48,031 bases of DNA from Fusobacteriaceae bacterium (GTDB lineage Bacteria; Fusobacteriota; Fusobacteriia; Fusobacteriales; Fusobacteriaceae), in the NCBI GenBank assembly GCA_031272775.1, contig JAISTB010000031.1:1-48031 (forward strand). Direction: 5' to 3'. This document shows positions 1 through 38,178 of this stretch, piece after piece. Positions within the stretch are counted from its first letter, which is position 1. Every line of letters begins with the position of its first letter. The position numbers and the translations under genes were made by a program. The notes beneath the pieces were generated by a model. That model was not told the DNA's origin and did no database searches. It was given only the letters and a program-made list of their open reading frames with translations.

Positions 1-192
1 GCCATCCAGCAATATATTACGATTTATAACCGAGTCATTCTGAAAGCCATAAATGATATTCATTAACTGACTTTTTCCGCTTCCATTTACTCCGGAAAGA
101 ATGATTAAATCCCCTTCCAGTTCTTGATGGAATCCGTTTTTGAAGGATTTGTAATCCTGATTAAGTGTTATGCTGATTTTTTTCATACTCAT
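1..192 (-). CDS. P-loop ATPase (AAA/ABC-like, Rlo/PrrC/OLD-type context), 5' portion only; the gene runs off the window start
   Basis: Reverse-strand translation gives MSMKKISITLNQDYKSFKNGFHQELEGDLIILSGVNGSGKSQLMNIIYGF... with Walker A GVNGSGKS. Its ATG overlaps the TGA of the upstream hsdM-N ORF (ATGA). Confidence 0.55.
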   Translation of the reverse strand, partial: MSMKKISITLNQDYKSFKNGFHQELEGDLIILSGVNGSGKSQLMNIIYGFQNDSVINRNILLDG

Positions 193-500
193 TTGATTAG
201 TTTCCTTAAAAGTTTGTCGCGGGTGGCGGCGAGGGTTTGGAGATACTTCCAGCGGGCGGTGGGCGGCACATAGAAGATGTTGTCTTTGGTCAGGTAGTCG
301 CGGAGGAAGTCCTCGACTGTCTCGTCAAAGCCCTCCGCCTTATATTTGGCGAATTGCGTTTCAAAAGCGTCGGAGACATACTTGATAAAAATCAGCCCCA
401 GCACCACATATTTGTAGTCGGACGAGTTGATATTGCCGCGCAGTTTGTTGGCAGCGTCCCAGAGGGTGCGTTCTAAATTATTTTTTTCTGTTTCTGCCAT
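189..500 (-). CDS. HsdM N-terminal domain only (truncated type I restriction-modification methyltransferase subunit); no methyltransferase catalytic domain
   Basis: 103 aa: LWDAANKLRGNINSSDYKYVVLGLIFIKYVSDAFE is the canonical HsdM_N signature. The ORF stops after the N-domain and is translationally coupled to the ATPase gene. Confidence 0.6.
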   Translation of the reverse strand: MAETEKNNLERTLWDAANKLRGNINSSDYKYVVLGLIFIKYVSDAFETQFAKYKAEGFDETVEDFLRDYLTKDNIFYVPPTARWKYLQTLAATRDKLLRKLIK

Positions 501-536
501 ATTTTTTTACTATTTTGCAAAGATACACTTTTTTTG

Positions 537-1163
537 TTATTTCTCAATATCAATTATTTTCCAATAGCCATTTTTTCTTGCACCTTCGCGTTTGATAATG
601 TTTCCCTGTTGCAACTCTCTGATATGCCTTTCGATTGTCCGCGTGCTTACATTTAATAATCCGGCAAGTTCCGGAGTTGTAATTCTTCCGTTTTTTGCCA
701 TCAAATTTAAAATATTTGGTTTTATCCCGACATTTATCCCGACACTATCTTTGTTTATCCCGACATTGTTATCACTCAAAGTATCAGTTTTTTCCACAGT
801 TTTCGCGGGGAACAGTTTCGCCTCTTTGATATGCAAATATCTGTTTTTCAATTCATTGTGTTCCCCAAAAAGAAGATTGCCAAAGAATTGCATGAGATAT
901 TCGGTTGTGGCGTGGATATTCAGTTTGGCGTCATTGAAATTTGCGCGCACAAGCGCGTTACGAAAATACCACGAATGAACAGCAAACAAATCGTTATCAA
1001 CGTTGAACCCGAAAGTTCGCAGGTATTTGATGGTGAAAACTGCCGTTGTGCGCGTATTCCCTTCGCCAAAGGCGTGGATTTGCCACAAACCGGAAATAAA
1101 TTTTGAGATATGCTCCACTTCTGCATTTATTTCGGGCAAAGCGTTTGCGTATCTTTCCGCCAA
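537..1163 (-). CDS. Fic/Doc family protein, N-terminally truncated, with C-terminal winged-helix DNA-binding domain
   Basis: Fic motif HAFGEGNTRTT (HxFx[DE]GNxR) lies only about 30 aa from the start, so the N-terminal helices of a normal Fic fold are missing. The C-terminus (NVSTRTIERHIRELQQGNII) looks like a wHTH. The start is TTG and is in frame immediately after the hepT stop. Confidence 0.55.
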   Translation of the reverse strand: MAERYANALPEINAEVEHISKFISGLWQIHAFGEGNTRTTAVFTIKYLRTFGFNVDNDLFAVHSWYFRNALVRANFNDAKLNIHATTEYLMQFFGNLLFGEHNELKNRYLHIKEAKLFPAKTVEKTDTLSDNNVGINKDSVGINVGIKPNILNLMAKNGRITTPELAGLLNVSTRTIERHIRELQQGNIIKREGARKNGYWKIIDIEK

Positions 1164-1226
1164 TTCTTTAATTTTTGTATTGAAAATAGAAGCGCGGGGT
1201 TTAGCGTTTGCATTAAAGTTGGCTCC

Positions 1227-1562
1227 TTATTCTTCCAATATAGTCTTGATTCGGCATATAAGAACAGGCACGTCTTTGGTTGCGGTTCCCCATATATCAT
1301 TTATGCGTAAAGAATCATAACCGTGCGCAGTGATATCGCGAAGGCCCGTTATTTTTTTCCACGGAATGTCCGCATATTGCTGACGCACGCTTTGAGGCAA
1401 TTGCTTAACCAATTCGCCTATATTCAGCAAATTCATACATACGCCGTCTTGGGCCATTTCATTGTCCAGGAACATCTCCAGCGAGCAACCTGAAACATAG
1501 CGAATGATTCGATTTGCCCGATATATAATTTTCGTGAGCAACGCTCTGGTCAATTCATCCAT
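1227..1562 (-). CDS. hepT: HepT (DUF86) HEPN-type toxin of a MntA/HepT toxin-antitoxin pair
   Basis: 111 aa with Rx4HxY motif (RDITAHGY). Overlaps the upstream mntA by 8 nt. Confidence 0.8.
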   Translation of the reverse strand: MDELTRALLTKIIYRANRIIRYVSGCSLEMFLDNEMAQDGVCMNLLNIGELVKQLPQSVRQQYADIPWKKITGLRDITAHGYDSLRINDIWGTATKDVPVLICRIKTILEE

Positions 1563-1839
1563 AGACGCGCACCTCTTTATTGATGATCAAATGAGAATTT
1601 TCCGGTAGCGGCGCGTGAAGAACGTCGACCGATTTATTGAGTAAATCTTCAAAATCATACTTAACGCCAATGATGTCCAGCAGCGACACCGTATCAGTGG
1701 TAAACTCCACAAGCAAATCCAGATCGCTTTCCTCGGTTGCGGTTCCACTTGCATAGGATCCAAATACAGACACCTTGGTCAAAGGATAGTTTTTCGCGAC
1801 CTGTTCCGCCGCTTTTTTTATTTGCTCCAGTGTCAACAT
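1555..1839 (-). CDS. mntA: MntA minimal nucleotidyltransferase antitoxin
   Basis: 94 aa with GSxxxG...DxD NTase motif (VFGSYASGTATEESDLDLLVEF). Confidence 0.8.
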   Translation of the reverse strand: MLTLEQIKKAAEQVAKNYPLTKVSVFGSYASGTATEESDLDLLVEFTTDTVSLLDIIGVKYDFEDLLNKSVDVLHAPLPENSHLIINKEVRVYG

Positions 1840-1983
1840 GACAATACCTCGCTTTGTTTAATTCTATCAGGAATATCTTAAAAATTCCTCCCCCTTCTTT
1901 TCCAAAATTATACCGCACGGCGGCCAAAATGTCCATATTTATTTGCCTGTTTCCGTAATTTTCCGGTCGTAAAAACCACTCCC

Positions 1984-2016
1984 GACAAAAAACCCCCGCA
2001 TCCGAAGATACGGGGG
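1984..2016 (-). terminator. Rho-independent terminator following tRNA-Pro
   Basis: Minus-strand sequence CCCCCGTATCTTCGGATGCGGGGG followed by TTTTTTG, directly 3' of the tRNA. Confidence 0.5.
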
Positions 2017-2028
2017 AATTGTTTCGAC

Positions 2029-2105
2029 TGGTCGAGGCGACAGGATTTGAACCTGCGACTTTTGCGTCCCGAACGCAACGCTCTACCGGGCTGAGCCACG
2101 CCTCG
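2029..2105 (-). tRNA. tRNA-Pro (anticodon CGG)
   Basis: Cloverleaf folded by hand: acceptor CGAGGCG/CGCCTCG, D-arm GCTC-AGCCCGGTA-GAGC, anticodon arm TTGCG-TTCGGGA-CGCAA, T-arm GCAGG-TTCAAAT-CCTGT, 3' CCA encoded. Confidence 0.85.
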
Positions 2106-2215
2106 AAGGGGCAGGGCCAATTTTTCCCTGCCTTGACATTATACTAAAACATCGGCCTTTCGTCAAGTAAAAGTTTGATTTTTTGTAAACTTTTGGAAAT
2201 TTTTCCAAAAGGCCC

Positions 2216-5200
2216 CTACCGTAACTTCCAGTGGAAGCGGATTCCGCAGCTCAGATCGGTTTCTTGCGCGTTCTGTCTTCTGCCCAGCTCCACATCCAGC
2301 GTCACGCCGTAATGATCGCTCTTCTCCACGGTAAATCCCAGGCGTCCCTTGAGGATTCCCCTTTCTTTTTCAGGATTGAGAAGCTCGTCATAGTCCGTGC
2401 CGCTTCCCGCAAAGCGCACCCGGTTTGCGCGGTGATTTTCGCCGAAATCATAGGCCCAGGCGAGGGCGCCTTCCAATTTCACGGCGTATTGCCCGCCGAT
2501 ATGCGTCCGGCGCATCCCCCGGACGCCCACTTCGCCCAGTGCGCTCACGTAATCCCGGGCGTCCACTTCAAGAATCAGGGCGCTTTCCCCCAGGGCCCGC
2601 TCGCGGAAATGATCGCCCGCGCCGTAGCTGAGGTCAAGAGACGTGTAGAGGTCCAATTTTCCGTGGATACTCCTGAAGAGGGTATTTTCGAGGGTATTTA
2701 TCAGGCGCAGCTCGTAGCTGTTATAAGAGCTCTTATTTTTGTAAACTTGATCAAGCTCGAGGGTGCGCTCGGCCTCATGCCGGTACCAGCCCAGCTCCAC
2801 CCGGGAAAGAAGCCGCAGCCTGTCGTCGGCCCCGAAGGGTGTCAGTCGGTGCAGGCCGCCTCTCAGCGCGTAGATGTCCTCTTTGGATTTGTCGCCGTAC
2901 AGGGGCGCGTCGTCGAAGTCGAAGCGAGCGCCGCCGAAGCCCAGTGACCAGCCCCATTTGCCGCCGTAGCGGTATCCTTCTCTTTCTTTCATGTACAGCA
3001 GCCCGTGCACGCGGTAGTCATAGTCGTCGATGCCGTCTGTCCCGTCGCGGAACGCGCCCTGACCGTAGATCACGCTGAATTTGTCCGTATCGGCCGTGTC
3101 GTTGTAGGAATCAAACATTTCGGCAAATGAGCGGTCGAAGGCCTTTCGCGTGTGCAGCTCCCGGTTTTGGATCGTCGAGTAGATGTCGCCGCGGATCTCG
3201 CCCAGGAGCCGACCGCTTTCCCGTTCAAAGGCCGCCGTTCCCTGTGTGGCATCGATCCGGTCGAGCCGGTAATTAAGTTTTTTCAAGAGTTGCGCGTCTT
3301 TGGAGGTCCCGGTGGGATCCCGTTTCAAAAGGATGTCGGCGCCTTCCTCGATGGCCGTAAATCGCGGATCCTTCATCACAAGGGCATAGGGCTGCTTCCT
3401 CACGGTCAATGTGCCGTCGGGCTCGACCCAAGCCTCAAAGAGGGGGGAGGTCCCGATCGTAAGGGACGCCGCGGCCGTTCCCGGTGTGTCGGTCTCTGAC
3501 GCCGCTCCGGCGGGGCTTGCGATAAATTCGTCGACTGCCCATTCATAGCCGTTTCCGCTCAGGATGTAATCCGGCTCCAATTGAGCGGTTCCGCTGAGGC
3601 TCGCGGTCAGGAACATGGGGGCGGCGCGGTATTCGCTGAGAGCCAGTCTGAGCCCCTCGGCGACGATGGCTTCGGCCGCGATGGTCCCGGCTGTGACGAT
3701 GTTGCCTTCGAGGACGAGAGCTCCGCCTTCGGCGTGAATGCCGGTCGATTGGGCGTCGAGCAGGCGGATTTCGCCGTTATTGATGAATTCGGCGTTTCCC
3801 TTGGCAAAGATTCCGATGCCGCCGGCTTCCACGGTAATAAGGCCGTTGTTGGTAAATCGCGTTGTCGCCGCACTTTCGACGCCTTCGAGGTAGACGCCAA
3901 TCGCGTGTTCGCCGTTGACCTGAATCACGCCGGTTTCTGTATTTATACCGCTCGCGCCGTTTACGAGCCGGATGCCTACGGATTCCATACCATAGTACTC
4001 GCTGTTCGTCACGGATATTGTTTCGTAATTCCGAATCGTCACATTGTCGGCAGTTCCATTTCCTGCGGCATAAATTCCGATGGCGCCCATATCGACGGAA
4101 ATATTTGCGAAATTTTCAAGATTGACCTGATTGCCGCCGGAGTATTCTTCATTATTTATAAAAATGCCATAATTTCCTCTGCTTATGCTCCAATCCCCTG
4201 AAGTTGTAATTTTGCCACTGCTTGAAATCTTGTATACCTTTGCGATTGGCGCATTGTACATCCATTCCAATTTTCCGTCTCCGGCAAAATTGTAGTCTCC
4301 GTCGCGATCAAGATAAACCACAACCTGACCCGCGGCGCTTTTTTCTCCTTGCTCCTCTTTATTTACTATCATGTCAGTCGATGCTTGCCTTGTAAATTCG
4401 ACATCTATCGGTTCGTCATACCGGGGCGTACCGACATTGTCGGCAGAATTGTCGGGATTATTGGGATTGTCCGGAGTATCCGGATTATCCGGAATGCTTG
4501 GATTGTCCGGGGTATTGGGATTCTCATTGGGATTCTCATTGGGATTCTCATTGGGATTCTCATTGGGATTCTCATTGGGATTCTCATAAGGATTCTCATT
4601 GGGATTCTCATTGGGATTATTTTGTTCATTCGAATTATTCTGTTCATTCGAATTATTCTGTTCATTTGAATTATTCGGATCCTCATCCGTATCCTCATTG
4701 GGATTGTCCGGATCGTCTGGATCATTTGGATCGCCCGGTTCTTCAGGATCAACGCCGGGTTCTTCAGGGACAACGCCCGGTTCTTCGGGATCAGTTCCGG
4801 GTTCTTCTGGATTTTCAGGAACTATGCCCGGATCTACTGGATCTTCAGGATCTGTCGGATCATCCGGATCTTCTGGATTTACTGGATCATCAGGCTCTTC
4901 CGGATCTCCCGGACCAACGTTTGGATTTCCAGAATCATCCGAATCATCTTGATCTTCTGGATCTTCTGGATCTTCTGGATCTTCTGGATCTTCCGGATCT
5001 TCCGGATCTTCCGGATCTTCTGGTTCTTCCGGATCCACAAGCTCTTCCGGACCTTCAGGCTCAAGGCTGGATTCCCCCGGTTCCTCAGGATCCGATGGTT
5101 CTTCCCCCCCTACGTTGGGATTCTCCGATTCCTCAGGTTCGGAAGAACCTCCTCCGCCGGAAGGCGCCCCTCCCTCTTCGCCGGGCGTTTCGATCGCTCC

Positions 5201-5686
5201 TCCGGGCGGCCCAGTATCGGGCTTGACGCCGCCCGAGCCCCCCGGAGAGGCCGCTTCGCCCGATTTGTCCCCGGACGCTGCGGCCTGGGTCTGCGGGCCC
5301 CCAGTCTTCGCAGGCTCTTTGGCCGCCCCCTTGCCGCTTTTCTTGTTTTTCCCGCTTTTGCTGTAATAGCCCGTCATGAAAAACTGCCTGCTCTCAAAGC
5401 GGGGCTTCGCGTAAAAATCCCCCTTGCGGATCAGCTCGTCAAGTTCCAGTTGCGTTTGCGCCTTCCGCTTCCGGTTTTCTTCGATCAATTGTAAAATTTT
5501 CTCTTTTTCCCCCTGCACGGCCATGTCGTATGACGCGGCCGCCGCGGGGACGCTCTCCTCCTTTACCGCCTGCGTCGCCGCCGCAGGGCTTCCCGTCCAA
5601 AAAAATACCGCCAGACAACCTGCAATTGCCCATTTGCGCCAAAAAGAACTTCCGCCTTTCAGAATCGCGTCATGGTTTTTACTCAT
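2216..5686 (-). CDS. Autotransporter-type outer membrane protein/adhesin with acidic low-complexity repeat region, beta-helix passenger and C-terminal beta-barrel
   Basis: Signal peptide after internal M19 (WRKWAIAGCLAVFFWTGSPAAATQA). Passenger has GNGTADNVTIRN / NNGEIRL beta-helix-like repeats. The C-terminal ~280 aa show an alternating amphipathic pattern (YRYGGKWGWSLGFGGARFDFDD...GIRFHWKLR). The start is taken at M19, not at the ORF-track M1. Confidence 0.6.
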   Translation of the reverse strand: MSKNHDAILKGGSSFWRKWAIAGCLAVFFWTGSPAAATQAVKEESVPAAAASYDMAVQGEKEKILQLIEENRKRKAQTQLELDELIRKGDFYAKPRFESRQFFMTGYYSKSGKNKKSGKGAAKEPAKTGGPQTQAAASGDKSGEAASPGGSGGVKPDTGPPGGAIETPGEEGGAPSGGGGSSEPEESENPNVGGEEPSDPEEPGESSLEPEGPEELVDPEEPEDPEDPEDPEDPEDPEDPEDPEDQDDSDDSGNPNVGPGDPEEPDDPVNPEDPDDPTDPEDPVDPGIVPENPEEPGTDPEEPGVVPEEPGVDPEEPGDPNDPDDPDNPNEDTDEDPNNSNEQNNSNEQNNSNEQNNPNENPNENPYENPNENPNENPNENPNENPNENPNTPDNPSIPDNPDTPDNPNNPDNSADNVGTPRYDEPIDVEFTRQASTDMIVNKEEQGEKSAAGQVVVYLDRDGDYNFAGDGKLEWMYNAPIAKVYKISSSGKITTSGDWSISRGNYGIFINNEEYSGGNQVNLENFANISVDMGAIGIYAAGNGTADNVTIRNYETISVTNSEYYGMESVGIRLVNGASGINTETGVIQVNGEHAIGVYLEGVESAATTRFTNNGLITVEAGGIGIFAKGNAEFINNGEIRLLDAQSTGIHAEGGALVLEGNIVTAGTIAAEAIVAEGLRLALSEYRAAPMFLTASLSGTAQLEPDYILSGNGYEWAVDEFIASPAGAASETDTPGTAAASLTIGTSPLFEAWVEPDGTLTVRKQPYALVMKDPRFTAIEEGADILLKRDPTGTSKDAQLLKKLNYRLDRIDATQGTAAFERESGRLLGEIRGDIYSTIQNRELHTRKAFDRSFAEMFDSYNDTADTDKFSVIYGQGAFRDGTDGIDDYDYRVHGLLYMKEREGYRYGGKWGWSLGFGGARFDFDDAPLYGDKSKEDIYALRGGLHRLTPFGADDRLRLLSRVELGWYRHEAERTLELDQVYKNKSSYNSYELRLINTLENTLFRSIHGKLDLYTSLDLSYGAGDHFRERALGESALILEVDARDYVSALGEVGVRGMRRTHIGGQYAVKLEGALAWAYDFGENHRANRVRFAGSGTDYDELLNPEKERGILKGRLGFTVEKSDHYGVTLDVELGRRQNAQETDLSCGIRFHWKLR
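4517..4618 (-). repeat. 12-bp tandem repeat (gggattctcatt, about 8.5 copies) encoding (NENP)n inside the autotransporter
   Basis: Perfect in-frame tandem copies visible in the sequence. Confidence 0.8.
4622..4676 (-). repeat. 18-bp tandem repeat x3 encoding (NSNEQN)n inside the autotransporter
   Basis: ttgttcattcgaattattc repeated three times. Confidence 0.7.
4951..5031 (-). repeat. 9-bp tandem repeat (gatcttctg/gatcttccg, about 9 copies) encoding (EDP)n inside the autotransporter
   Basis: Direct tandem copies, in frame. Confidence 0.8.
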
Positions 5687-6078
5687 CGTTCCTCCATTCT
5701 TTTTTACCCATTTGCGCGGTTTTGTCCGCGCAATCGCCATGGTAGATTTTGTATTCCGTTGCTGTAGAGATTTATCGTGAAAAATCTATCTGAACATTTA
5801 TGTTTCAACAAAAAACAAAAAAACCGCCCGATTGATCTTCGCTTTTCCGCGGATTTTTCAACAAAAACAAAAAGTCCGCCTGAATAACGATCGCCTTATT
5901 GTGGAAACATTTTCGCCAAATGGATATTATTCACTATTATACCACGGACTCTGCCTTTTGTCACGCTATTTTTTTGTTTTTCTTCCGATTTTTGTCTTTT
6001 TGTTCCCCTCCAATAACACCAAAAAGCAATAATTCAGGACGGCGGCGTCGCCGAAATTTTTTTTGCTTTCCGAAAAAA

Positions 6079-38046: not shown

Positions 38047-38123
38047 AACAAAGAGTGATCCCGTAGCTCAATTGGATAGAGCAATTCCCTCCTAAGGAAT
38101 AGGTTGTGTGTTCAAGCCACATC
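38047..38123 (+). tRNA. tRNA-Arg (anticodon CCU)
   Basis: Acceptor GATCCCG/CGGGGTC, D-arm GCTC-AATTGGATA-GAGC, anticodon arm ATTCC-CTCCTAA-GGAAT, T-arm GTGTG-TTCAAGC-CACAT, CCA encoded. Confidence 0.85.
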
Positions 38124-38178
38124 GGGGTCGCCATTTCTTTATCCGCAATTTTTGACTTTACCCTATGAGGAGTGAGCG

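Follow-up and report, generated by a model that had tools for sequence, protein, structure and literature searches.

A probable horizontally acquired patchwork of defence-gene pieces, with an apparently intact MntA/HepT pair, downstream of tRNA-Pro(CGG) at a contig end

Features at the contig end

The window analyzed here is the full deposited contig (48,031 bp), and it opens within a low-GC islet that reaches the contig end at position 1. The GC content of positions 1-2028 was 41.9%, compared with a mean of 54.4% (sd 3.8) for 2-kb intervals elsewhere in the contig; this was the lowest value among the contig's 2-kb intervals (z = -3.3). The first-pass annotation of this DNA had described a tRNA-Pro, an mntA/hepT pair, a Fic protein, an HsdM_N ORF and a Walker-A ATPase, and all of these were found where it had placed them. 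The features are as follows; all those within 1-2105, namely tRNA-Pro(CGG), mntA, hepT, 'fic, hsdM' and the start of the ATPase gene, lie on the minus strand.

1-192, minus strand: first 64 codons of an ABC-type ATPase gene that runs off the contig (Walker A, GVNGSGKS)
189-500, minus strand: hsdM', a 3'-truncated hsdM remnant of 103 aa that matches positions 1-87 of the 135 in Pfam HsdM_N only
537-1163, minus strand: 'fic, a 5'-truncated Fic-wHTH remnant (ORF of 208 aa, annotated start TTG; homology over 537-1119)
1120-1226, minus strand: 107-nt stretch from the hepT stop to the start of Fic homology, which accompanies hepT in contigs L001 and L002 (see below)
1227-1562, minus strand: hepT, predicted HEPN RNase toxin, 111 aa (Pfam HepT-like, 72.9 bits, 2.3e-20, positions 5-119 of 120)
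1555-1839, minus strand: mntA, predicted minimal nucleotidyltransferase antitoxin, 94 aa (Pfam NTP_transf_2, 49.5 bits, 5.7e-13)
1907-1935, minus strand: promoter-like site within the module, upstream of mntA (TGGACA-17-TATAAT, 11/12 consensus, conserved in L001)
1945, no strand: right-hand boundary of the horizontally shared module, where homology to L001 begins exactly, at CAAATAAATATGGAC
1993-2016, minus strand: intrinsic-terminator-like hairpin and T-run 3' of the tRNA gene (10-bp stem with 7 GC pairs, then TTTTTT)
2029-2105, minus strand: tRNA-Pro, anticodon CGG (ARAGORN; Rfam tRNA, 66.2 bits, E 3e-13)
2138-2166, minus strand: promoter-like site for the tRNA gene (TTGACG-17-TATAAT, 11/12 in a consensus scan, a consensus match only)

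An Rfam search of positions 1-6000 found no RNA gene besides tRNA-Pro. To the right of the tRNA gene, the contig carries chromosomal-type genes (autotransporter, EamA, Nnr, MacB/HlyD/OEP and RecJ), and tRNA-Pro(CGG) is part of this chromosomal side (54% GC) rather than of the islet. The five ORFs of the islet are co-oriented and no terminator-like site was found from hepT to the contig end; read-through from the putative mntA promoter is therefore plausible.

The mntA-hepT pair

According to Yao et al. (2020; PMC7641770), a Class I HEPN/MNT pair consists of adjacent genes encoding PF01909 (MNT) and PF01934 or PF08780 (HEPN) domains, the toxin carrying the motif RX4HXY and the antitoxin GSX10DXD. 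In the islet, the NTP_transf_2 and HepT-like matches were both above the gathering cut-offs and lay in neighbouring genes, which overlap by 8 nt. Both motifs were present, RX4HXY as RDITAHGY in hepT and GSX10DXD as GSYASGTATEESDLD in mntA. The claim of an intact MntA/HepT pair in the first-pass annotation was thus borne out by domain and motif, and the two genes appear from their sequences to encode a Class I HEPN/MNT (type VII) toxin-antitoxin pair that is apparently intact. It is the only demonstrably complete unit of the islet.

The two proteins scored below the 60-bit cut-off of the NCBIfam equivalog models (40.1 bits for MntA_antitoxin and 25.0 bits for HepT_toxin). As judged by these profile scores, MntA and HepT are distant superfamily members and not equivalogs. 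MntA matched PDB entry 1WOT (E 3e-7), and no relative of HepT in the PDB was detectable by sequence. The arrangement resembles that of SO_3166/SO_3165 of Shewanella oneidensis (PMC7641770), in which mntA likewise lies upstream of and overlaps hepT and the domains are PF01909 and PF01934; the pair in the islet also keeps GSX10DXD and RX4HXY, including the acceptor tyrosine. Unlike SO_3166/SO_3165, to which they are only distantly related in sequence, the islet proteins are short (111 aa for HepT and 94 aa for MntA).

Because the NCBIfam scores were below cut-off and HepT had no PDB relative, an AMPylation mechanism is proposed by analogy only. By analogy with SO_3165/3166, the GSX10DXD site of MntA would oligo-AMPylate the tyrosine of the HepT RX4HXY motif and thereby hold the RNase inactive. 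Once MntA activity was lost, HepT would be released to cleave RNA, and growth would be arrested. Addiction of this kind would account for an intact cassette amid decayed neighbours, that is, for the retention of mntA-hepT while the adjacent genes decayed.

Truncated fic and hsdM genes

'fic covers positions 59-93 of the 93 in Pfam Fic and positions 168-373 of the 377 in the PADLOC model PDC-S72 (184 bits). It carries the motif HAFGEGNTR and a C-terminal wHTH (HTH_24, 1.3e-9). Intact Fic relatives had a median length of 363 aa (mostly 348-395 aa), and their motif lay at residue ~185-200; approximately 160 N-terminal residues are therefore missing from 'fic. DNA and protein homology to the Fic family ended at ~1118-1120 in dozens of independent alignments. 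Thus, the Fic protein is truly truncated, as had been proposed: the motif is kept and the N-terminal part of the fold, including the helices N-terminal to the motif, is absent. The motif of 'fic (HAFGEGNTRTTA) differs from HxFx(D/E)GNGRxxR in two places, the second G and the final R. The same or a closely similar variant (HAFGEGN[TS]R...A) occurs in nearly all of the 40 relatives listed, and the deviation is therefore a family trait rather than decay. No relative of 'fic was found in the PDB by sequence.

The proteins most like 'fic are the Fic-wHTH proteins of the PADLOC candidate PDC-S72, which are embedded in type I RM loci and share the HAFGEGNTRT[TI]A motif and the C-terminal wHTH. Unlike them, 'fic lacks the residues that correspond to profile positions 1-167, and it lies upstream of the hsdM remnant and not downstream. 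Fic relatives immediately followed hsdM in 12 of 79 loci, so the order in the islet, 'fic and then hsdM', is the reverse of that in these 12 related loci.

In hsdM', residues 1-~89 resemble HsdM of type I RM systems, with matches to HsdM_N and PADLOC MTase_I, and the DNA is 94% identical to the hsdM genes of L006 and L007 (see below). The final ~15 residues (TLAATRDKLLRKLIK) were unrelated to HsdM in protein alignment, and no match supported them as the native end of a deleted hsdM. Unlike HsdM, hsdM' has no N6_Mtase domain, no alternative frame could hold the rest of the gene, and neither hsdS nor hsdR was found in 1-2105 or near hsdM' in the 48-kb contig, past the end of which the locus continues. 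The ORF, described in the first-pass annotation as the HsdM N-domain only, is a real truncation: homology to hsdM DNA ends at 238. A full-length hsdM interrupted by a frameshift was excluded, as the 237 nt past 238 consist of the ATPase gene and its leader.

Thus, 'fic and hsdM' are pseudogene remnants, and hsdM' is without the whole methyltransferase domain. They were probably made by deletion or illegitimate recombination and not by a sequencing frameshift.

Breakpoints shared with independent contigs

Three breakpoints were mapped in the islet, at 1945, ~1119 and 238, and individual pieces of the islet were common to independent contigs at 94-100% identity. Four segments of differing ancestry appear to be joined at sharp breakpoints. 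The first would comprise the intact cassette of mntA and hepT, together with a near-consensus promoter of its own (1227-1945), and the 107-nt tail (1120-1226), the second the 3' ~55% of a Fic-wHTH gene (537-1119), the third the 5' ~270 nt of an hsdM gene and its leader (238 to ~535/569), and the fourth the 5' end of the ABC-ATPase gene (1-237).

When the islet was aligned with contig L001 (JGI sample 3300005723), positions 1152-1945 matched L001 10411-9618 at 99.4% identity (blastn and pairwise alignment), and the MntA and HepT proteins were identical in the two. The other flank of L001 was unrelated to the window; it has 55% GC, a flavoprotein gene, a sigma-54 gene and a diderm-type character, and carries no tRNA. 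The putative tRNA terminator at 1993-2016 is specific to the window, lies outside the shared module and had no homology to L001 in the alignment. Contig L002 (Logan SRR14710912) matched positions 506-1564 at 100%, with an identical HepT, and reproduced the junction between hepT and 'fic independently. No significant match to the 107-nt tail that could indicate its source was found in any fetched locus.

Two further loci delimited the hsdM segment. The hsdM gene of L007 was 93.6% identical to positions 238-473, and DNA homology stopped at 238. In L006, which is from a Tannerella MAG, identity was 94.6% to positions 312-535 and DNA homology stopped at 312; this locus has a different internal hsdM deletion and adjoins two GmrSD_N genes and RadC. 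The junctions at 1945 and 238 were observed in this MAG contig only.

Origin of the islet

Taken together, these results indicate that positions 1-1945 are probably the exposed margin of a low-GC mosaic of defence-gene pieces, acquired horizontally, that lies downstream of tRNA-Pro(CGG) and its terminator. The accessory and partly eroded character that the first-pass annotation had ascribed to the islet was supported by its low GC, its breakpoints, its gene remnants and the occurrence of its pieces in independent contigs. The islet is an ordinary decayed defence-island edge. Positions 1-1945 could form the end of a much larger element, such as an ICE, an integrative island or an RM locus.

The 3' ends of tRNA genes are well-known integration sites, and the first-pass annotation had pointed to that of tRNA-Pro. 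If the locus were a classic tRNA-targeted island, an integrase-bearing element would have entered the 3' end of tRNA-Pro(CGG), positions 1-2028 would be its tRNA-proximal arm, and the sequence past the contig end would contain the integrase, hsdS/hsdR and the distal att repeat. Like tRNA-associated genomic or defence islands, the islet is positioned directly 3' of a tRNA gene, its composition is atypical, with a sharp GC drop at that point, and it contains defence genes; further, the contig breaks inside the islet, with the far end outside the sequence. However, the shared homology stops at 1945 and not at the tRNA 3' end (2029), so that the boundary is 84 nt off and past the intact tRNA terminator. 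The identical module end abuts the terminator of the flavoprotein gene in L001, in which there is no tRNA. Integrases of tRNA islands usually adjoin the tRNA gene, whereas the first gene here is mntA, and no integrase was present among the genes of the visible 2 kb (1-2028). Positions 1-2028 contained no direct repeat of the 3' end of tRNA-Pro, the matches being short and at chance level, and the search for terminal inverted repeats also gave short, chance-level matches only.

Searches against mobile-element sequences also argued against such an island. HepT and the ATPase had no relatives on IMG/VR viral contigs, and the plasmid and phage collections held no close match, the matches being at most 166 nt long and 71-77% identical. 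The 10 plasmid matches listed, of 18, all fell within the conserved 5' part of hsdM', and the sole match in the phage collection fell in the Fic remnant. We therefore consider integration of an island into this tRNA gene unlikely. Proximity to a tRNA gene and a drop in GC do not show tRNA-targeted integration; here, alignment with another contig showed the module to end in fact 84 nt from the tRNA gene, beside a terminator.

An assembly or binning artefact, in which 2 kb of low-GC sequence from another organism or element became wrongly attached to one end of a contig with 54% GC, is very improbable. It would fit the restriction of the 1945 and hsdM'/ATPase (238) junctions to this metagenome-assembled contig, the location of the islet at the extreme contig end, and the labels of the MAGs that hold the nearest relatives of its pieces, which are those of other phyla (e.g. 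Tannerella); the label "Fusobacteriaceae" on a 54%-GC contig also hints at binning uncertainty. In contrast, L001, an independent assembly, has this module joined at the identical nucleotide to a diderm-type flank of 55% GC. Further, a third data set (L002) contains the hepT/'fic junction at 100% identity, and around 1945 there is no repeat of a kind to favour a mis-join.

That the short ORFs are themselves functional, with the HsdM N-fragment and the ATPase forming a two-gene unit by translational coupling (ATGA) and the 208-aa Fic-C/wHTH protein serving as a DNA-binding regulator, is scarcely credible: the ATPase start codon does overlap the hsdM' stop codon (ATGA), the ORFs share one orientation and no terminator separates them, 'fic keeps an intact wHTH, and the Tannerella MAG retains an hsdM N-fragment that is nearly identical (97% over 63 aa), but an HsdM_N ORF was upstream of the ATPase in none of 13 ATPase-relative loci, hsdM' ends within the HsdM_N domain, the truncation point differs (residue ~89 in the islet and ~63 in L006) as expected for independent decay, and 'fic has a TTG start and lacks N-terminal residues found in nearly all relatives.

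Neither the HsdM_N and ATPase architecture nor the MntA/HepT and Fic architecture was found as a recurrent one in related loci. Further, the same left end was not detected in other contigs, either by an exact 32-mer scan of GTDB genomes or by a degenerate-pattern scan of JGI metagenomes, in which there were only relatives at 56-77% identity. Given a patchwork of acquired pieces, the consequence for annotation is that the hsdM and Fic ORFs are to be recorded as pseudogene remnants and MntA/HepT as the sole credible functional unit. Beyond annotation, the islet matters little.

The ATPase at the contig edge

The 64-aa ATPase fragment gave weak matches to AAA_15, SMC_N and ABC_tran, and its closest relative was a 70-aa stub. 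We defined the ATPase family by a profile search, which yielded 216 cluster representatives at E<=1e-3. Most untruncated relatives are 550-640 aa long, and in the full-length ones AAA_21/SMC_N matched residues 1-340 above cut-off. The C-terminal profile of the relatives (positions 395-586) gave a weak match (E 2e-5) to the retron Ec67/Eco2 RT-Toprim protein, within its Toprim part, and conserved E-G..D and DxD-like motifs were present in this region; the Pfam Toprim model did not match the full-length relatives.

When the full-length relatives were compared with PADLOC, Pfam and NCBIfam, generic ABC-ATPase models alone were matched (E 1e-9 to 1e-15, mostly over part of the profile), and none of the three collections holds a dedicated model for the family. 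The first-pass annotation had considered an Rlo/PrrC-like ATPase, and no PrrC or Rlo family was among the matches listed for either the fragment or the full-length relatives. Its suggestion that the Fic protein and the ATPase are RM-associated held up, as relatives of both are often embedded in RM operons. For the ATPase, these contexts include L095 (M-ATPase-S), L092 (Mod-ATPase-Res), L091 and L093, and the relative in L094 adjoins a McrB-like AAA_5 gene. Members of the family were located inside restriction loci of types I, III and IV, and they were frequently reduced to N-terminal stubs.

On this profile evidence, the ATPase of the islet belongs to a family that combines an ABC ATPase with a putative Toprim-like domain at the C-terminus, in an OLD-like architecture, and that is commonly found inside type I/III RM operons. 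The closest architecture is that of the OLD-family ATPase-Toprim nucleases (P2 Old, Gabija GajA, PARIS AriA/AriB and retron Toprim effectors), which the full-length relatives resemble in having an N-terminal ABC ATPase, a putative C-terminal Toprim-like domain and a defence-locus context; the Toprim assignment derives from the single weak profile match and the motifs, both in relatives, and the window itself holds 64 residues of the protein. We raise tentatively, as a somewhat doubtful possibility, that this OLD-like family, as yet uncharacterised, may be a distinct kind of anti-phage effector in which the Toprim-like domain is divergent; the islet copy would then be a further example, whether intact or a stub. 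As an RM-embedded group, the ABC-ATPase/Toprim-like family is a minor lead for the cataloguing of defence systems.

Composition and right-hand boundary of the islet

The window comprises the complete deposited contig (48,031 bp), which belongs to a metagenome-assembled genome (MAG) labelled Fusobacteriaceae bacterium. GC content was 41.9% in positions 1-2028 and 54.4% in the other 46 kb of the contig (z = -3.3; the lowest among all 2-kb windows). All features of this low-GC islet and of the adjacent tRNA-Pro lie on the minus strand, in the following order from right to left.

2166-2138, minus: near-consensus promoter-like site of tRNA-Pro
2029-2105, minus: tRNA-Pro(CGG) (ARAGORN; Rfam 66 bits)
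2016-1993, minus: strong terminator-like hairpin after tRNA-Pro
1935-1907, minus: second promoter-like site (TGGACA-17-TATAAT), ahead of mntA
1555-1839, minus: mntA, 94 aa (Pfam NTP_transf_2, 49.5 bits)
1227-1562, minus: hepT, 111 aa (Pfam HepT-like, 72.9 bits, profile positions 5-119/120)
537-1163, minus: 'fic, a Fic open reading frame of 208 aa with a TTG start
189-500, minus: hsdM', 103 aa (HsdM_N positions 1-87/135, no other match)
from 192, minus: ATPase open reading frame (MSMKKISITLNQDYKSF...GVNGSGKSQ), leaving the window after 64 codons

Every feature named in the first-pass annotation (tRNA-Pro, mntA/hepT, Fic, HsdM_N, the Walker-A ATPase and the motifs) was confirmed. Its description of an accessory, eroded defence islet also held. 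The low-GC region is a mosaic with sharp breakpoints at 1945, ~1119 and 238. The islet consists of ordinary defence-island debris and one intact toxin-antitoxin (TA) module of a well-understood type, and none of its features departs from known families.

The JGI contig L001, an independent assembly, matches window 1152-1945 with 99.4% identity, and its MntA and HepT proteins are identical to those of the window. Upstream of the position equivalent to 1945, L001 possesses a flavoprotein gene and the terminator belonging to it, then sigma-54, MlaA and other genes; this flank has 55% GC, lacks a tRNA and showed no similarity to the window by tblastx. Because the L001 homology starts exactly at CAAATAAATATGGAC (window 1945) beside an unrelated flank, the alignment places the right end of the module at a discrete point, 84 nt beyond tRNA-Pro and past the tRNA terminator. 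By the same comparison, an identical module end recurs in a different genomic setting.

The first-pass annotation had suggested integration at tRNA-Pro; the islet would then be the near part of a larger element whose far end lies outside the contig. The tRNA is indeed adjacent. However, the boundary is 1945, the same end occurs away from any tRNA in L001, and the visible part of the islet contains neither an integrase nor an att-like repeat, and we consider this origin unlikely. Neither GTDB genomes, scanned for an exact 32-mer, nor JGI metagenome contigs, scanned with a degenerate pattern, yielded a contig sharing the left end of the window. A chimeric assembly joining the low-GC module to the contig is more improbable still, given that the module is flanked by ~55%-GC sequence in two independent assemblies.

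The MntA/HepT pair

The mntA and hepT genes overlap by 8 nt. MntA possesses the GSX10DXD motif (GSYASGTATEESDLD) and HepT the RX4HXY motif (RDITAHGY). Class I HEPN/MNT pairs are operationally defined as adjacent PF01909 and PF01934 genes with these two motifs (PMC7641770), and the pair agrees with this definition in domains, adjacency and both motifs. As judged by every sequence test, it is the sole complete unit of the islet. Both proteins scored under the NCBIfam equivalog cut-offs. In the PDB, MntA matched the minimal nucleotidyltransferase 1WOT only, and no relative of HepT was detectable by sequence. Purely by analogy with the published Shewanella pair (SO_3165/SO_3166), we infer a type VII-like mechanism, in which MntA would oligo-AMPylate HepT with the tyrosine in RDITAHGY as the acceptor. 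Further, TA addiction could plausibly have kept the mntA-hepT cassette intact while its neighbors decayed. From 1900 to 1, the minus strand contained no terminator-like site, making it plausible that the remnants and the ATPase gene would be transcribed by read-through from the mntA promoter.

The Fic and HsdM remnants

Of the Pfam Fic profile, the 'fic product matched just the final 35 positions; it also has a C-terminal winged-helix (wHTH) domain and matched positions 168-373/377 of the PADLOC candidate family PDC-S72 (184 bits). When 79 Fic-wHTH genes from GTDB genomes were compared, most encoded 348-395 aa (median 363), with the motif HAFGEGNTRT[TI]A usually located at residue ~185-200; 'fic lacks ~160 N-terminal residues relative to these. 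The unusual motif (T for the second G, A for the last R) is, on this alignment, a family trait. In dozens of independent alignments, Fic homology of both DNA and protein ended at ~1118-1120, and no match was obtained for the 107-nt stretch separating this point from the hepT stop. A third data set, Logan contig L002, reproduces window 506-1564 at 100%, which rules out an assembly artefact at the hepT/'fic junction (~1119). The 'fic gene is best read as a pseudogene remnant without the part of the fold preceding the catalytic loop. Within it, a 14-nt unit (TTTATCCCGACATT) occurs three times at 721-767 and encodes VGIN-type repeats (NNVGINKDSVGINVGIK) of the linker ahead of the wHTH; the aligned relatives carry similar short, variable linker repeats. 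For many of the closest Fic relatives, the source MAGs bear isolate names that resemble one large gut-metagenome series.

The DNA of hsdM' was 93.6% identical to hsdM of contig L007 (window 238-473) and 94.6% identical to that of L006, a Tannerella MAG (window 312-535). Protein similarity stopped after ...PPTARWKYLQ; the window continues TLAATRDKLLRKLIK*, whereas relatives continue AKQPxIGxLVDKAM.... The first-pass annotation had allowed for a frameshifted full-length hsdM. This was looked for and ruled out: the ATPase gene directly follows hsdM', so no frame can contain the remainder. The comparison indicates a true truncation with its breakpoint at 238, and hsdM' is best read as a pseudogene remnant without the methyltransferase domain. 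In L006, this N-terminal fragment recurs (97% over 63 aa), joined to a late part of the methylase domain and adjoining two GmrSD_N genes and RadC at a core-gene edge. This looks like independent decay within the same hsdM lineage.

In 12 of the 79 Fic loci, a co-oriented hsdM immediately precedes the Fic gene. The window has the opposite order, with 'fic upstream of hsdM', so the remnants cannot be put down simply to decay of a single hsdM-fic operon. In L007, the hsdM relative is preceded by a HATPase_c_4 gene (L007 453-640), whose wHTH-coding 3' end resembles the end of 'fic (88% over 41 nt at window 529-569; 39% protein identity over 59 aa). This hsdM lineage seems to keep the wHTH end and the hsdM leader, with a variable upstream gene.

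The ATPase fragment and its family

The ATPase start overlaps the hsdM' stop (ATGA). A profile built from the 64-aa fragment and four relatives detected 216 cluster representatives at E<=1e-3. Untruncated relatives are mostly 550-640 aa, with an AAA_21/SMC_N-type ABC ATPase at residues 1-340 and a C-terminal region of ~200-250 aa without a Pfam match. This region has conserved ..FVEG.xD..Y.. and ..FDCD.. motifs, and its profile matched residues 363-579 of the retron Ec67/Eco2 protein (E 2e-5), which is described in the literature as an RT-Toprim fusion. From these motifs and this match, the family architecture is predicted to be OLD-like, an ABC ATPase with a Toprim-like domain. PADLOC and NCBIfam gave generic ABC-core matches only (mad3, AriA, AbiLi, NsnB, PtuA and GajA), mostly with partial profile coverage. 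Nothing among them was specific to PrrC/Rlo, and the Rlo/PrrC-like identity proposed at first was not supported.

Among 13 metagenomic loci, members often lie within restriction loci, for example:

L095: N6_Mtase, ATPase, HsdS
L092: type III Mod, ATPase, Res
L091 and L093: methylase upstream of the ATPase
L094: McrB-like AAA_5 gene downstream of the ATPase

These contexts, together with the Fic loci preceded by hsdM, bear out the earlier view that Fic and ATPase genes accumulate in restriction-modification (RM) loci. The only mildly interesting lead is the RM-embedded ABC-ATPase/Toprim-like family, which is not represented by any curated model.

The closest relative, in L003 (76% identical in DNA across 167 nt and 79% in protein), is only 70 aa long, and the gene after it is unrelated. 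N-terminal stubs of 70-187 aa from this family, the L003 copy among them, recur in unrelated contigs; each keeps the Walker A region and precedes unrelated ORFs:

L003, 1458-1670
L004, 1482-1745
L005, 802-1140
L087, 9368-9931
L088, 10004-10567

The window copy may be a stub as well. The ORF that follows the L004 stub is 174 aa long and has an IGIFDRD motif.

The chromosomal flank

Genes to the right of tRNA-Pro are of chromosomal type and of a diderm bacterium. Directly adjacent is an autotransporter of 1174 aa (2216-5740, minus), which gave no Pfam match at full length; scanning its C-terminal 294 aa alone detected PF03797 (Autotransporter beta-domain, 1e-19). Its passenger domain contains long acidic Pro-rich repeats (PEDPEDPED..., NENPNENP...), which account for a local GC dip at ~4000-4750. 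Further genes encode EamA, an NAD(P)HX repair enzyme, MacB/HlyD/OEP efflux components and RecJ. The NCBI label Fusobacteriaceae contrasts with the 54% GC and the diderm efflux and autotransporter genes, and may reflect an error in binning or classification.

Second-lowest in GC on the contig is 18959-20017 (minus; GC 0.38-0.41 vs ~0.55 in the flanks), a candidate second low-GC single-gene insertion. Its product is 352 aa long and has a DUF4325 (STAS-like) domain at the C terminus; the neighboring genes encode a cyclophilin and an ABC-transporter permease. In addition to tRNA-Pro, a second tRNA gene, for tRNA-Arg(CCT), lies at 38057-38133 (plus).
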